From a virus (Duplodnaviria; Heunggongvirae; Uroviricota; Caudoviricetes), in the IMG/VR virus record IMGVR_UViG_2724679140_000008: a DNA stretch of 33,770 nt, one strand, 5' to 3'. Below, piece after piece: positions 18,264 through 33,510 of the stretch. Position 1 is the stretch's first letter, and every line of letters begins with the position of its first letter. The notes beneath the pieces are model-generated. The model was not told where the DNA came from and did no database searches. It was given only the letters and a program-made list of their open reading frames with translations. The translations under genes and the position numbers were made by a program.

Positions 18264-18495
18264 TAAGCAAAAAAGCTCCCGAAGGAGCCTTCATTTTCAC
18301 TTTCTTAAATCTAACGACAGATGGCTAACATTTAAGTATTGTGAAATATTATCAAATGTGATCATCATTGATTTACAAAAGATACATTTTGCCCCGAAAG
18401 GATTTCTGTCAGAAACATCAAAAGATGATGTTCTATACTGAGAACCATGGCAACACGGGCATCTAAAGTGAATATGGTTTGTAATATTTTCTACC

Positions 18496-18708
18496 TCAAA
18501 GTGCCACTACATGAACAGCTGCAGGGCCTTTAGGTCCGTTCTCAATACCAAATTCGACTTCCTGATTCTCAGTTAACGTTTTGAAATCGTTGCTCTGAAT
18601 AGCTGAGAAATGCACAAACACATCTTTGCTACCATCTTTCGGCGTGATGAAACCAAAACCTTTTTCAGGGTTAAACCATTTCACTAAACCAGTCATTTTG
18701 TTAGACAT
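18496..18708 (-). CDS. cspI: Cold-shock protein, CspA family (cspI-like)
   Basis: [70 protein letters not shown], with the canonical RNP1/RNP2 cold-shock motifs. A long AT-rich leader lies upstream (18712-19070). Confidence 0.9.
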
Positions 18709-19071
18709 CATTATTACCTTTTGAAGAAGTTAGCCCTTGGGCAGAATGGTCCGAAAAAAAATATCAGAGAGAAAAACCAACAAGGAAATCTCAAGAGGTA
18801 CAAATAATAAAATTATAACAATGACTGCTTCAGATAATTTTGTAACAAACCAGAACACCATTAACGCATGATTAACCAACCATAGCAAGGATTACTTTTG
18901 TAAAGAAAAACACACGAATGAAACAATAGCTTTATTTATTAATAAAACGTGTCATTCTGTCTAATGACCTTTTATCTTACCCTTAAGATTTCAAGGATTT
19001 TGACTCATGGAAGAGTCCTTTTTATTTAAATTTCACATTCAGCGCTAAAAATAATCCGATTTAATATTAAT

Positions 19072-20723: not shown

Positions 20724-20753
20724 TGCAATATAAAAAGCTCGCCGTAGCGAGCT
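20724..20753 (-). terminator. Intrinsic terminator downstream of the lipoprotein genes and upstream of the holin
   Basis: Minus-strand hairpin AGCTCGC-tacg-GCGAGCT followed by TTTTTATA. Confidence 0.5.
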
Positions 20754-20878: not shown

Positions 20879-21274
20879 CTAACCTCGCATGTCAAAGCCA
20901 GATTTCTGAAAATCTCTGTAGACTTCCGGATTGTTGAAGGCCGGAAATTTGGCTTTATGAGCTGCGGACTTTATCGCTTCGCAATAGGCTTTATCACCGT
21001 TACTGGTAGATATTTTTAACGCCGTGCCATCCTGAGAGAATTCCATATGCAACCTGCATTTTTTCCCTTTCCAGTTATGCGGCTCATCAAGTTTGGCATT
21101 AATTGCAGCTCTGATTCCCCGCGCTTGCGCCCCCCATTCATCCTGATCATCCCAGCGTCCTGAACTGCAACTACCTGTAGCAGTAGTTTTGTGGCAATCT
21201 GAAGGGTGTAAAGGTGTGCATCCCGCAACAAAACCGACCCAAAAAGTCAACATAACGATTTTCTTTAATCCCAC
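20879..21274 (-). CDS. Outer-membrane lipoprotein with TolA C-terminal (domain III)-like domain, paralog 2
   Basis: GTG start after GGAG; signal peptide with lipobox (MGLKKIVMLTFWVGFVAGC, Thr at +2). C-terminal ...KGKKCRLHMEFSQDGTALKISTSNGDKAYCEAIKSAAHKAKFPAFNNPEVYRDFQKSGF aligns with the TolA domain III pattern, including both Cys. Confidence 0.8.
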   Translation of the reverse strand: MGLKKIVMLTFWVGFVAGCTPLHPSDCHKTTATGSCSSGRWDDQDEWGAQARGIRAAINAKLDEPHNWKGKKCRLHMEFSQDGTALKISTSNGDKAYCEAIKSAAHKAKFPAFNNPEVYRDFQKSGFDMRG

Positions 21275-21424
21275 TTCTTGCTCCTCAATCCATTAAAATC
21301 TCAGCAATAGTAGTTGTTACGTCCGCCACTGGCTCAGAGCTGACTATCCGCTAAATTTAGCTCAGTGCCGTAGTTGTGTCAGAACAAACCTAAGCCGAAA
21401 CCGTTTATTACAAAACAATAAATA

Positions 21425-21853
21425 TCAGGGTTTAAAATCCAGCACCCCATTTTGAAATACTTTATATACTTCCGGCGAAGGGGGGGCAGGTATATCAGCA
21501 TTCTTTATCGCATTCATCGCTTCACGACATAAATCGAGGTCTCCACTTTCTCTTTTAACCTCCAGTAGAAGGCCATTCGGGGCCATATGCATTCTCAGTG
21601 TACACTCTTTTCCTGAATACTTACTCGCATCCCCGAACTGTTTTTCGATGGCGCTCTTGATTTGATGGGCATACAGACGGATATCCTCACTAACATCAGA
21701 AGTACGTTCAGATGAACTCACATACTGTGTCTCTATTGCTTTATCGGAGTAATATGATGTACGGTCATGATAATTTGTCGATACAGCATCAGTGCACCCG
21801 ATAATAATCCCACTAATAATCAACGTAAGAATTGATGCGCTACGAAAACCCAT
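21425..21853 (-). CDS. Outer-membrane lipoprotein with TolA C-terminal (domain III)-like domain, paralog 1
   Basis: Signal peptide with lipobox (MGFRSASILTLIISGIIIGC, Thr at +2); GAGGA RBS. C-terminal HQIKSAIEKQFGDASKYSGKECTLRMHMAPNGLLLEVKRESGDLDLCREAMNAIKNADIPAPPSPEVYKVFQNGVLDFKP closely matches the E. coli TolA C-terminus as I recall it (...QIKSAIESKFYDASSYAGKTCTLRIKLAPDGMLLDIKPEGGDPALCQAALAAAKLAKIPKPPSQAVYEVFKNAPLDFKP). Confidence 0.85.
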   Translation of the reverse strand: MGFRSASILTLIISGIIIGCTDAVSTNYHDRTSYYSDKAIETQYVSSSERTSDVSEDIRLYAHQIKSAIEKQFGDASKYSGKECTLRMHMAPNGLLLEVKRESGDLDLCREAMNAIKNADIPAPPSPEVYKVFQNGVLDFKP

Positions 21854-21869
21854 TTTTCCTCACATATGT

Positions 21870-21910
21870 CATATAGTAAAGAATTATATATACCGTTGTT
21901 TTGGACGCTC
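21870..21910 (-). promoter_or_regulatory. Candidate sigma70 promoter for the lipoprotein genes
   Basis: Minus strand reads ...TTTGAGCGTCCAAAACAACGGTATATATAATTC about 20-40 nt upstream of the RBS. Unverified. Confidence 0.3.
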
Positions 21911-22386
21911 AAACAGCGAATCAGATCAAATAAAACGCACATTTGTTAACATTTACACAAAGTCTGCGTGGGATATTCTGAAAGAATATCCATAATGTGG
22001 AGAGAATCTATTGAAGTGCATGGTGCCGGGTGCCTCCCGGTGAATTCAGTACCAGCACCTGAATCCGCGATTATCCCATATACCTACTCGCTGATTGCCC
22101 CTCCGCACAGGGGGATTCACCATGCCAGTTTCTTTTAACAAACTCCCCGCAAACCAGAGAACAGTCAACCGCCTGAATTGTGAAGTATTTAAAAATTTCT
22201 CCCGCTAACTGATACCCGGCTAACAGTCTGGCGTTTTCTTTTTCAGCAACGGGAAAGCAACAACCACCACACCCGCCACCAGCACACTGTCAGCCAGCAC
22301 TGACATTATCCGGCTGCTGCAATGCCATTCACAAAAACAGTAAGCAATCACTTTTTACCGTAACAGGTGATAATCCAGATATGTAT

Positions 22387-22740
22387 CTACCCCAGATGAG
22401 TAATCCGAAGTTCATCCATACCACAGGTCCTGGCTATTCTGTTGTACTCCTGAACAAGAGCAAATAATTCTGAATTAGCAACCATGAACTCATCGCAAAC
22501 CCTCTGTATAGCATCACTATTCAGAATAATAACGTCTCTTCCCGAAAGACGATCAGGAGCACAGAACAAAACTGTCAAACGGCTGAAGGCCTTTGCTCGT
22601 GCTGCATTGACTATATCAATACGCTGCCTAAGGATGAAACACCCCGACGCCTCATCAATATTCACTCTACCCACACCATATGAATGATAAATATTTAATG
22701 CTGAAAAAACCATTAGACCGTATAACAAACACTCAATCAA
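22387..22740 (-). CDS. Hypothetical protein between the tRNAs and the lipoprotein genes
   Basis: ORF-track ORF of 117 aa with a TTG start and no convincing Shine-Dalgarno; internal ATG at about 22713; no recognisable motif. Confidence 0.3.
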   Translation of the reverse strand: MIECLLYGLMVFSALNIYHSYGVGRVNIDEASGCFILRQRIDIVNAARAKAFSRLTVLFCAPDRLSGRDVIILNSDAIQRVCDEFMVANSELFALVQEYNRIARTCGMDELRITHLG

Positions 22741-22850: not shown

Positions 22851-22927
22851 TGGCGCGCTGTACTGGATTCGAACCAGTGACCGATTGCTTAGAAGGCAAT
22901 TGCTCTGTCCGGCTGAGCTAACAACGC
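22851..22927 (-). tRNA. tRNA-Arg (anticodon UCU)
   Basis: Minus-strand sequence GCGTTGTTAGCTCAGCCGGACAGAGCAATTGCCTTCTAAGCAATCGGTCACTGGTTCGAATCCAGTACAGCGCGCCA: 7-bp acceptor stem, anticodon loop CU-UCU-AA, GGTTCGAATCC T-arm, encoded CCA. Coordinates anchored on the spurious ORF 22762..23049. Confidence 0.9.
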
Positions 22928-23027: not shown

Positions 23028-23103
23028 TGGTGGCCCTTGCTGGATTTGAACCAGCGACCTGGCGATTATGAGTCGCTCGCTCTCACCACTGAGCTAAAGG
23101 GCC
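23028..23103 (-). tRNA. tRNA with CAU anticodon (Ile2-like, ileX/ileZ type; Met not excluded)
   Basis: Minus-strand sequence GGCCCTTTAGCTCAGTGGTGAGAGCGAGCGACTCATAATCGCCAGGTCGCTGGTTCAAATCCAGCAAGGGCCACCA, which closely resembles E. coli ileX as I recall it. Confidence 0.88.
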
Positions 23104-23246: not shown

Positions 23247-24068
23247 TTACCTAGTTACCTTTTTTAACTGCCGCTCAGCCCATGCTTCTTCAATATCAAA
23301 CCGGGTCACCAGCGCATCATAGAATTTCTTAACTGTTTTTTCCCATGACGCGCGTGTTATCTGGTTTGTCACCTCGCATATAGCATTAAATGCCTCCGTT
23401 GATGGTAGTCTTTCATAGCCACGACCACCACAACGCTGGCAGTCTCTGATAACAGGCATACCACGTTTTACCGACTCTTCACGGTGAATGGCGACACCAC
23501 GCCCACGGCAATCCTTACAGGCGGTGGAAACCTCACCCTTTCCGCCACACTCCGGACAGGCAACTTTTACCACCTCCCTGACTTTTTTCCATTCTTCCCA
23601 GTAAGACGGATACACACCTTTCGTACACTTTGCCCATACCGGCGGCTTACCATCCGGATACTGGACCTTGTTTGTAAAAACTATGCTTTCAATAAATTTT
23701 TCCCCATAGCAACAAGGGCACTGCTTTTTACTCGCTGCGCTGCGGGCATAATCCTCAAAAGCGTACGAAGCCATAATGCGCATCACTACCGGTTTTATTT
23801 CTGCCGGAAGTTTTCTCAACGCCGCCACACGATCGCACCGACTGAGTGCATAATCTGCCAGTAATTCTGTTGCCCGCGCCCTGTCATTCATACTGATGCC
23901 CATTTTCCCCAGGAACGCAGAAAAACCCATCTCAGCCCGATTCTGTGTCATGCCCTGCGCGGCCATCACATCAGTGATACTCAGCGCATCTTTTGACGTT
24001 GAGGCCGATGCATCGGTCAGGCCAGGGGATTTTGGGGAGTAGTATTTCGGTAAATCTTCCAGTTTCAT
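23247..24068 (-). CDS. Late-gene antitermination protein Q
   Basis: 273 aa with Cys-rich zinc-binding clusters (CPCCYGEKF...CPECGGKGE...CKDCRGRG...CQRCGGRG), upstream of a late promoter/terminator pair. Confidence 0.85.
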   Translation of the reverse strand: MKLEDLPKYYSPKSPGLTDASASTSKDALSITDVMAAQGMTQNRAEMGFSAFLGKMGISMNDRARATELLADYALSRCDRVAALRKLPAEIKPVVMRIMASYAFEDYARSAASKKQCPCCYGEKFIESIVFTNKVQYPDGKPPVWAKCTKGVYPSYWEEWKKVREVVKVACPECGGKGEVSTACKDCRGRGVAIHREESVKRGMPVIRDCQRCGGRGYERLPSTEAFNAICEVTNQITRASWEKTVKKFYDALVTRFDIEEAWAERQLKKVTR

Positions 24069-26315: not shown

Positions 26316-26384
26316 TTACTCCTCAGGTTCGTAAGCTGTGAAGACAGCGACCTCCGTCTGGCCGGTTCGGATTCGTACCTCGCA
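26316..26384 (-). pseudogene. hokD: hokD/relF remnant (3' fragment only)
   Basis: Minus strand encodes CEVRIRTGQTEVAVFTAYEPEE-stop, the Hok-family C-terminus, but the frame is closed by TGA two codons upstream and no frame encodes the TM helix. Confidence 0.6.
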
Positions 26385-26443
26385 GTGTCAACGCAAAGCA
26401 GAAGTGTCACCTTCGGTGCGAAACAGAGATGTCATGCTTTGGT

Positions 26444-26731
26444 TCAGAGAATGCGTTTGACCGCCTCGCTATATACTTCCGAGCGTTCTCTTTTCCCAAC
26501 AGAAATCACGAAAACGACAACTTTCTCGTCTATAACCTGGTATACAAGGCGATAGCCTGAAGACCGGAGCTTAATCTTGTAACAATCAGGCATACCACGG
26601 AGCTTGTTTGCTTCAATCCGGGGTGACTCAAGTACTTCAACCAGCTTCTTTTTCAACTGTTCACGTACCGTCGAGCCCAGCTTTCGCCATTCCTTTAGTG
26701 CCCGCTCGTCAAAATCCAGAAAATACGCCAT
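26444..26731 (-). CDS. relE: RelE mRNA-interferase toxin
   Basis: 95 aa, MAYFLDFDERALKEWRKLGSTVREQLKKKLVEVLESPRIEANKLRGMPDCYKIKLRSSGYRLVYQVIDEKVVVFVISVGKRERSEVYSEAVKRIL, essentially identical to E. coli RelE. Confidence 0.97.
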   Translation of the reverse strand: MAYFLDFDERALKEWRKLGSTVREQLKKKLVEVLESPRIEANKLRGMPDCYKIKLRSSGYRLVYQVIDEKVVVFVISVGKRERSEVYSEAVKRIL

Positions 26732-26970
26732 CAGAGTTCATCCAGCGTCACACGTACTGGCTTAGGATTACGAAGCCGTTCTTTCACTATCTCCACAAGT
26801 TCAGCATCTTCATCACTCAGGAGTGTCTGTTTGAACGGCAAGCGTTCATTGTCAGCGATATACTCGAGCATGAGACGAAGCGCTTCAGAAGGAGTTACAC
26901 CCATTTTTTCAAGCGCGGCGTAAGAACGCGCTTTAAGTTCATCGTCAATACGCAGGTTAATGCTACCCAT
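26731..26970 (-). CDS. relB: RelB antitoxin
   Basis: 79 aa, MGSINLRIDDELKARSYAALEKMGVTPSEALRLMLEYIADNERLPFKQTLLSDEDAELVEIVKERLRNPKPVRVTLDEL; its stop overlaps the relE start. Confidence 0.97.
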   Translation of the reverse strand: MGSINLRIDDELKARSYAALEKMGVTPSEALRLMLEYIADNERLPFKQTLLSDEDAELVEIVKERLRNPKPVRVTLDEL

Positions 26971-26974
26971 GTCT

Positions 26975-27035
26975 TACACCTCTTGTAATTACAAATGTCA
27001 TTACAAGTATCGCACTACAACATGCTTAGGGCAAG
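26975..27035 (-). promoter_or_regulatory. relBE promoter/operator (relO-like inverted repeats)
   Basis: Palindromic TTGTAATTACAA and TGTCATTACAAG elements immediately upstream of relB. Confidence 0.5.
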
Positions 27036-27300
27036 TCACGAAGGAAGTCAGAAAGTAGTCGTAAGAACGGTGATCACTGTCCGCTTTGTGCCAGGAGCAG
27101 CCATTGCTAAGTCCATCCTGTATTGTGCAGGTCAGCTCGCTTTTAAAGAGTCCGGCCATCATCTTACTGGTACAGACACCATATACTTTGTGACGGTCAG
27201 GCTACATATGCACAACTCAACTTATTCATCTATTTTTTGCTTTAGCATGTCAGTGTTGCTTTCTCGTCGGCGGGTGAGCGGTGACCTGACCTGTCGATAA
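26995..27300 (+). CDS. YdfV-like hypothetical ORF
   Basis: 101-aa plus-strand ORF between relB and flxA, the same size and position as ydfV in Qin; it overlaps the relB operator and its coding status is doubtful. Confidence 0.25.
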   Translation: MSLQVSHYNMLRASHEGSQKVVVRTVITVRFVPGAAIAKSILYCAGQLAFKESGHHLTGTDTIYFVTVRLHMHNSTYSSIFCFSMSVLLSRRRVSGDLTCR

Positions 27301-33453: not shown

Positions 33454-33510
33454 TTTCTGGTGACGTTTGGCGGTATCAGTTTTACTCCGTGACTGCTCTG
33501 CCGCCCTTTT
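33454..33510 (+). ncRNA. dicF: DicF small RNA
   Basis: TTTCTGGTGACGTTTGGCGGTATCAGTTTTACTCCGTGACTGCTCTGCCGCCCTTTTT, identical to the E. coli DicF sequence as I recall it, ending in its own terminator hairpin and U-run. Confidence 0.88.

Follow-up and report, generated by a model that had tools for sequence, protein, structure and literature searches.

The window considered here, a stretch of 33,770 nucleotides recorded in IMG/VR as IMGVR_UViG_2724679140_000008, is a lambdoid prophage of the Qin family. On its minus strand it carries two adjacent genes, here called A and B, which code for small lipoproteins ending in a copy of the C-terminal head of TolA. This head, domain III (TolAIII), is the entry point shared by group A colicins and filamentous phages. 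With moderate confidence we favour the view that the two proteins are lipid-tethered, motor-less decoys of the TolA head, directed against Tol-dependent bacteriocins or against the pIII protein of filamentous phages. Their relatives form a general family of mobile elements and enterobacteria, and are no invention of prophages.

Gene A (21425..21853, minus strand) starts with ATG, codes for 142 residues and has a GAGG Shine-Dalgarno sequence upstream; gene B (20879..21274, minus strand) starts with GTG, codes for 131 residues and is preceded by GGAG. Both open reading frames (ORFs), as well as the lipoprotein signals with their cysteine and the threonine that follows it, are just as the original prediction had described them from the letters of the DNA. 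Protein A begins with MGFRSASILTLIISGIIIG, followed by C20-T-D (lipobox IIIG/C), and protein B with MGLKKIVMLTFWVGFVAG, followed by C19-T-P (lipobox FVAG/C). In each, a positively charged n-region and a hydrophobic core precede a lipobox of the form [LVI][ASTVI][GAS]C, and this signal is also kept in homologues. With threonine at position +2 and no aspartate there, both proteins should be lipidated and, by the E. coli +2 rule, sorted by the Lol system to the outer membrane. The signal peptide and lipobox of A occupy 21794..21853 (Cys20 codon at 21794..21796), those of B 21218..21274 (Cys19 codon at 21218..21220). In A, there follows a tether rich in S, T, D and Y (residues 21-54; 21692..21793), disordered, with an AlphaFold confidence score (pLDDT) below 50, then the TolAIII domain (residues 55-142; 21428..21691) and the stop codon (21425..21427). 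In B, the corresponding piece is a conserved Cys-rich segment (residues 20-43; 21146..21217; pattern C19-x7-C27-x8-C36), ahead of the TolAIII domain (residues 44-131; 20882..21145) and the stop codon (20879..20881). This segment, C-TPLHPSD-C-HKTTATGS-C-SSGRWDDQDEW, is almost invariant across genera, so that the low-complexity linker first ascribed to both proteins is found in A but not in B. The pattern C-x7-C-x8-C is still recognisable in relatives of 33-50% identity; AlphaFold confidence is low in that segment. For gene B, PGAP gives a product of 124 residues, begun at an internal ATG. The 131-residue reading, with its Lys-Lys n-region, is the better one, since plasmid copies of the gene carry ATG at the very codon that is GTG in the window, their product reading M-G-V-K-K.

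The identity of the C-terminal domain is firmly established. Pfam family PF06519 (TolA C-terminal, gathering cut-off 25 bits) recognizes A with 82.6 bits (E = 2.4e-23) and B with 54.6 bits (E = 1.3e-14). Compared with the sequences of the PDB using phmmer, residues 55-142 of A correspond to residues 334-421 of E. coli TolA, with no gap and right through to the C-terminal end (E = 5e-28), while residues 50-129 of B align with residues 340-419 (E = 5e-9). Identity to E. coli TolAIII amounts to 59% for A and 31% for B. The cysteines that form the TolA disulfide, C363 and C388, are retained in the aligned columns, as C84 and C109 in A and as C73 and C98 in B. The AlphaFold models, where pLDDT is mostly above 90 across the domains and the N-terminal parts are disordered, display the alpha/beta fold of TolAIII with its three-stranded sheet. 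With TM scores normalised to the target, the top Foldseek match of A is E. coli TolAIII 2x9a_B (root-mean-square deviation 0.6 Å, TM 0.95, 60% identity) and that of B is E. coli TolAIII 3qdp (1.0 Å, TM 0.93, 31% identity), TonB C-terminal domains ranking far behind in both cases. The module resembling TolAIII and its two disulfide cysteines, proposed at the outset together with a structural comparison as the way to check them, are thus borne out by profile, alignment and model alike. With an identity of just 28-29% between them, A and B are not the outcome of a recent duplication, and the view that they are diverged paralogs was correct.

To be sure, neither protein is a TolA. Domain I, the inner-membrane anchor to TolQR, and the helical domain II, rich in Ala, Lys and Glu, are both absent; between the cleavable lipoprotein signal and domain III there are 34 residues in A and 24 in B. 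These are therefore lipoproteins bearing a TolA head domain. The TolA equivalogs of NCBIfam align with them only over their last ~95 positions: NF007065 gives 107.8 bits for A and 53.7 for B (cut-off 213), covering only positions ~293-387, and TIGR02794 gives 75.6 bits for A, above its cut-off of 59.45 while covering only positions 265-362 of 362, and 47.2 bits, below it, for B. Neither A nor B has a full-length match above the curated cut-off to these bona fide TolA equivalogs. The RefSeq/PGAP label of gene A, 'tolA: cell envelope integrity protein TolA', arises because A exceeds the cut-off of TIGR02794 despite matching its last ~98 positions only. This label is a systematic mis-annotation that extends over hundreds of genomes. 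PHROGs returns for A and B only TolA/TonB families and phrog_5772, of 'unknown function'. Hence the annotation of the domain is already in the databases (PGAP names, Pfam, phrog_5772). As for function, a search of a full-text library of papers brought up no study of proteins of the A or B type, in agreement with the initial remark that none had been described; PMC6854850 and PMC2948877 go no further than naming a 'TolA protein' or the genuine tolA gene.

What might such heads bind? In TolA, the alpha2 helix and the beta3 strand (L417-K420) of domain III are used by the N1 domain of the filamentous-phage protein g3p (g3p-N1), by colicin N (ColN) and by TolB, through beta-strand addition, and replacing either D418 or K420 by proline abolishes binding of all three (PMC4339652). 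Because binding is by beta-strand addition, the side chains of beta3 matter little. The dissociation constant is about 1 µM for ColN-T (1.8 µM in steady-state surface plasmon resonance, SPR) and about 40 µM for TolB; for g3p-N1, SPR in the same study gave 12-15 µM where previous measurements had given about 1 µM (PMC4339652). Mutants affected in the binding of TolA to TolB are sensitive to sodium dodecyl sulfate (SDS) and leak periplasmic contents (PMC4339652). Colicin A (ColA) uses the opposite face of the domain, L375-P380 with K368, K379 and K396 (PMC3365938). Protein A, aligned to TolA, keeps the beta3 sequence LDFKP exactly and 11 of the 16 residues of alpha2, I344 and Y340 among them; its counterpart of the ColA strand LLDIKP reads LLEVKR, and of the three lysines it retains K379 and K396. 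CpoB had also been named among the ligands that might be titrated, which is unlikely, since the region of TolA that binds it, residues 280-313 (PMC8928145), is absent from A and B.

The mechanism that we favour would run as follows. Delivered by the Lol system to the inner side of the outer membrane, A and B would display a TolA domain III on a short tether. With no TolQR-linked membrane anchor and no helical domain II, they would be unable to transduce energy, and would thus constitute a tethered dead-end copy of the ligand-binding head of TolA. Ligands obliged to reach TolAIII for entry would be captured just beneath the outer membrane, and capture would give the lysogen tolerance or exclusion; in colicins and bacteriocins of the Tol-dependent kind (group A) the part captured would be the translocation domain, in filamentous phages the N1 domain of pIII. 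The micromolar affinity of these ligands for TolAIII, as against some 40 µM for TolB, might allow capture without a full block of Tol-Pal. In this division of labour A would be a close mimic of the E. coli head, and B an older, diverged member, probably covering a different ligand. In 1993, Levengood-Freyermuth, Click and Webster reportedly had wild-type cells export free TolAIII to the periplasm and observed tolerance to colicins E1, E2, E3 and A, not to the TonB-dependent colicin D; the exported domain is said to have also made the cells leaky. Two observations give the decoy indirect support: A keeps LDFKP and most of the alpha2 helix used by g3p-N1, ColN and TolB, and relatives of the two proteins ride on conjugative and bacteriocin plasmids, elements that meet such invaders, in one case beside a cloacin operon with a TonB_C partner. 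The moron-like layout and the purifying selection described below also speak in its favour.

The distribution of the two genes differs. Among 5426 complete E. coli genomes, gene A turns up in 888 (16%), almost always in the chromosome, and in a search of the protein database its protein family is limited to E. coli and Shigella. An A-type variant of 66% identity stands alone, between tRNA genes and the nanS-p esterase gene, in other lambdoid prophages (L096 is an example), at the position held by stxAB in the Stx phage 75/02. Gene B is found in 1269 complete E. coli genomes (23%), at 825 chromosomal and 525 plasmid places. B-type proteins fall into 370 clusters, whose members come from Citrobacter, Enterobacter, Klebsiella, Raoultella, Serratia and Shigella; identity is 78-89% among the 120 clusters listed of these 370. 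In Enterobacter, Serratia, Citrobacter and K. oxytoca the B-type gene is a solitary chromosomal gene whose neighbours differ from genus to genus, and ~250 nt of upstream DNA is common to the chromosomal copies of three genera. The prophage origin first assigned to these lipoproteins accordingly holds for the window, but the family extends to plasmids and to solitary chromosomal genes in those four genera. Most relatives retrieved by an exhaustive HMMER search are lipoproteins of 110-160 residues. In a distance tree that included cellular TolA sequences drawn from the protein search, the lipoprotein forms fall outside the clade of cellular TolA, the A-type proteins forming a clade of their own with other lipoproteins. 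Recent capture of the E. coli tolA gene as the origin of A was considered and rejected: the 59% identity of A is to be set against 55-92%, mostly above 70%, for the heads of cellular TolA retrieved from other Enterobacterales, and the separate clade speaks against it as well. A scan of genome contigs with the A domain found one Shigella locus only, its patterns being too specific, and BFVD contained no viral structure of the TolAIII-type fold at E <= 1e-3.

Both genes are functional, as shown by purifying selection. The ratio of nonsynonymous to synonymous substitution rates (dN/dS) for mature B is 0.04-0.13 against plasmid and chromosomal copies (dS 0.5-1.1), the Cys-rich segment included; comparison of A with its 66% variant gives 0.24 in the domain and 0.59 in the tether.

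Plasmids are a major home of the family. About 600 plasmids of PLSDB bear a B-type copy, 88% identical. As cases in point, on pO157 the gene lies between psiB-psiA-hok and toxB, and on IncK2/Z plasmids and Shigella plasmids of the I complex it comes immediately after the relaxase gene nikB. On 236 Klebsiella ColRNAI plasmids of ~10 kb, two overlapping genes are divergent from a bacteriocin-immunity-lysis operon of the cloacin/E3 type. The first codes for a 123-residue lipoprotein with a TolA_C domain (lipobox LTA/C, C-terminus APLDFRP), the second for a 121-residue Sec-exported, periplasmic TonB_C protein; K. pneumoniae plasmid NZ_CP028788.2 provides an example (L102:1841-2574). This association may represent paired decoys of both energy transducers of the envelope. 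In sister plasmids, an Exc2-family lipoprotein occupies the slot of the TolA_C lipoprotein; it shows no similarity and was rejected as a relative. In CloDF13 the same slot is filled by proteins K and L. These were considered as a TolA_C/TonB_C pair and likewise rejected, K being an unrelated lipoprotein and L having no significant match. Some 310 IncF plasmids of Klebsiella and Enterobacter code for another TolA_C protein, of 144 residues, behind a gene for a thioredoxin-fold protein (DsbA/TraF-like), as in the Klebsiella IncFIB/IncFII plasmid NZ_CP024040.1 (L100:5217-6246). Serratia contributes lipoproteins of 137-147 residues (P0328, P0333, P0337 and P0350) with the signature LTGC/TK and a mature part that opens with the hinge motif of TolA domains II and III, VDDLF..L.GK. 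Their TolAIII domain has 60-64% identity to the E. coli one, the versions of 147 residues 60-63%. Such a structure suggests that a lipoprotein signal was joined to the 3' end of tolA independently or long ago.

In the window, the surroundings of the pair are typical of a Qin-family prophage, with tail, head, terminase and lysis modules, Q, rusA, hokD, relBE, a cro/cI-like pair and DicF. The order on the minus strand is Q (24068..23247), a terminator-like hairpin, tRNA(CAT), tRNA-Arg(TCT), a DUF3927 ORF, STnc100, a promoter-like site, gene A, a spacer of 150 nt, gene B, a second hairpin, then holin, ydfR, lysozyme and Rz; the prophage possesses a full holin/endolysin/Rz set. The promoter-like site (21883..21912, minus strand), TTGAGC and TATAAT separated by 18 nt, agrees with the sigma-70 consensus at 10 of 12 positions and lies ~30 nt upstream of the start of A; it is a candidate autonomous promoter of the kind found in morons, a prediction only. 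At the other end, a hairpin resembling an intrinsic terminator (20736..20753, minus strand; AGCTCGC-TACG-GCGAGCT, then TTTTTAT), located by scan and in the sequence 126 nt downstream of B and upstream of the holin gene, closes the cassette. The scan predicts no terminator in the spacer between A and B (21275..21424, minus strand); its last ~45 nt, Shine-Dalgarno sequence included, are common to all B-type copies on plasmids and chromosomes. G+C content drops to 0.38-0.43 over the cassette, from about 0.48-0.52 on either side. In every one of the 80 IMG/VR loci retrieved, A, B and holin keep this order, while the upstream Q region is variable. In its layout the pair resembles a moron cassette between Q and holin, with a candidate promoter and terminator predicted by consensus scans, which are weak evidence.

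Isolated phages add no support to the role of this cassette. In the phage collection it was found only in mEp460_ev081, and wild-type mEp460 (NC_019716) is without it, having gp51, gp52 and a DNA methylase gene between Q and holin. The former is an evolved derivative that seemingly swapped in the Qin-like late region (gnsB, cspI, rem, hok) of a prophage of its host; we infer that its cassette was acquired from this resident prophage and that the slot is exchangeable.

A number of smaller features lie close by. Directly upstream of gene A is the small RNA (sRNA) STnc100 (21964..22154, minus strand; Rfam RF02076, 114 bits for a gathering threshold of 47), with which gene A could be co-transcribed. 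Its core, an 84-nt piece (22017..22100), is conserved across thousands of E. coli genomes as well as among Stx phages; in the Stx phage 75/02 of Shigella it comes right after stxB and ahead of the nanS-p esterase gene. The tRNA genes between Q and the cassette (22851..22927 and 23028..23103, minus strand), for tRNA-Arg(TCT) and a tRNA with anticodon CAT, are the customary pair of the late regions of lambdoid and Stx phages; the latter is read as Met by ARAGORN and as Ile, presumably lysidine-modified, by PGAP. A TTG-start ORF of 117 codons (22387..22740, minus strand), devoid of Pfam match or PGAP annotation, is probably no gene; it adjoins the 43-residue DUF3927 ORF (22220..22351, minus strand; E = 6e-26). 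Further cargo of the Qin type comprises the DicF sRNA (33455..33506, plus strand), a thermoregulator leader of the cspA type before cspI (18450..18866, minus strand) and hokD/relBE (26316..27069, minus strand).

Several observations weigh against a decoy function. The beta3 strand of B reads FDMRG, its ColA strand ALKIST, and none of the lysines of the ColA site is present. Identity to TolA is lower at the ligand sites of B than elsewhere (23% vs 34%); in A, it is 69% at these sites and 55% elsewhere, a difference that is not significant (p = 0.24). As identity is not significantly enriched there, sequence neither proves nor excludes binding. Divergence at both known ligand sites, together with the conserved extra Cys segment, indicates that B probably has another specificity and hence a ligand different from that of A. 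The leakiness said to follow from free TolAIII means that a decoy made constitutively could be costly. Genes A and B lie in the Q-dependent late transcript and may be expressed mainly in lytic growth; the promoter ahead of A has a weak consensus and comes from a non-specific scan, which found 11 sites in the region for 7.2 expected. The solitary chromosomal B-type genes of several genera are also compatible with a housekeeping role in the envelope. Finally, PADLOC-DB v2 contains no defence protein matching A, B or the Klebsiella TolA_C/TonB_C pair.

These reservations leave room for other accounts of the pair. It is possible, if rather doubtful, that A and B, and B especially, are envelope lipoproteins that reuse the C-terminal fold of TolA and TonB to hold, by beta-strand addition, a partner foreign to the Tol system, such as an outer-membrane protein, a peptidoglycan enzyme or a periplasmic protein. 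B lends itself to this reading with its mere 31% identity to TolAIII, its divergence at both mapped ligand sites and a C-x7-C-x8-C segment shared with relatives of 33-50% identity; many lipoproteins of 110-160 residues with a TolAIII-type domain came out of the exhaustive search, and chromosomal copies stand alone among ordinary metabolic genes. A, however, closely reproduces the E. coli head, with 59% identity and an identical C-terminal strand, and the chromosomal copies have as much as ~250 nt of upstream DNA in common despite their differing neighbours, the mark of a horizontally moving accessory gene in a family strongly tied to plasmids, prophages and a bacteriocin operon. The location of the cassette suggests something else, which we consider unlikely: made from the late transcript, A and B would bind the N-terminus of TolB and block the TolA-driven release of Pal, creating a transient tol phenotype (weaker attachment of the outer membrane, blebbing) that would aid lysis, virion release or the formation of vesicles. 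The cassette does sit downstream of Q and immediately upstream of the holin, lysozyme and spanin genes, the TolB-binding strand is conserved in A, and loss of TolA-TolB binding results in SDS sensitivity and leakage (PMC4339652). Yet the prophage has a complete holin/endolysin/Rz set of its own, the cassette comes with a promoter-like site and a terminator-like hairpin of its own, the affinity of TolA for TolB is weak (about 40 µM), and the B-type gene is kept under strong purifying selection on ~600 plasmids and as a solitary chromosomal gene, with no lysis genes nearby.

It is most improbable, by contrast, that A and B are functionless, decaying pieces of a captured tolA gene. The PGAP name 'tolA' of gene A and the many truncated variants of the protein database might suggest as much, but both genes have acquired new lipoprotein signals and ribosome-binding sites, they are intact in hundreds of genomes with dN/dS far below 1, and the lipoprotein forms belong to clades apart from cellular TolA. 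Returning to the decoy of the TolA head, we would tentatively generalize it: mobile elements of Enterobacterales, be they lambdoid prophages, conjugative plasmids of the IncF and I-complex types or small bacteriocin plasmids, might, like certain chromosomes, bear an unrecognised layer of protection. It would be made of motor-less decoys, lipid-tethered TolAIII and secreted TonB_C, that stop bacteriocins and filamentous phages in the periplasm short of the true TolA or TonB, with A and B together widening the range of ligands.

Were this to be the case, a widespread natural TolAIII decoy would represent a novel means of tolerating bacteriocins and excluding phages. It would have a bearing on the performance of antimicrobials based on colicins or phages and aimed at clinical and food-borne strains, with B-type genes on pO157 and on resistance plasmids of the I complex, and relatives on Klebsiella plasmids. 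It would also account for the 'tolA' fragments of mobile elements that annotation pipelines mislabel, and place at our disposal dominant-negative probes of natural origin for studying how TolA is coupled to TolB in Tol-Pal.

How do A and B compare with systems already described? With domain III of E. coli TolA (residues ~325-421; structures 1TOL, 2X9A, 3QDP/3QDR and 1S62) they share the fold, the pair of cysteines and the C-terminal end point; unlike TolA they lack domains I and II, hence any coupling to TolQR or to the proton motive force, and they are predicted to be anchored by lipid to the opposite, outer membrane. The exported TolAIII reportedly studied in 1993 was likewise a head domain without motor in the periplasm, and thus a precedent for a dominant-negative decoy; it was made in the laboratory, soluble and overproduced, whereas A and B are natural, diverged, carried by mobile elements and, as predicted, lipid-tethered. 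Exclusion lipoproteins, such as Cor of phi80 and N15, Llp of T5, and TraT, block an outer-membrane receptor. Along with Exc2 of ColE1-type plasmids they resemble A and B in being small and encoded by prophages or plasmids, and they act in the envelope against phages, DNA or toxins; A and B would instead imitate a periplasmic component of import, and they have no sequence similarity to described exclusion proteins in Pfam and PHROGs, or to the Exc2 family when compared. Similar in concept is a prophage-encoded FimU-like pilus mimic, which gives anti-phage defence in Pseudomonas (PMC12952977): there a prophage copy of a host envelope component blocks the invaders that depend on it, in a different setting, type IV pili of Pseudomonas, and with an unrelated protein. 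The slot between Q with its tRNA genes and the holin gene is also that of the stx and nanS-p morons of Stx phages, whose products and functions are unrelated. Within the family itself, the Klebsiella pair, the 144-residue TolA_C protein of IncF plasmids and the Serratia lipoproteins of 147 residues have the architecture of A and B, a lipobox and then a TolA_C domain with LDF(K/R)P at its C-terminus, while differing in clade, in partner (TonB_C or a thioredoxin-fold protein) and in carrier.

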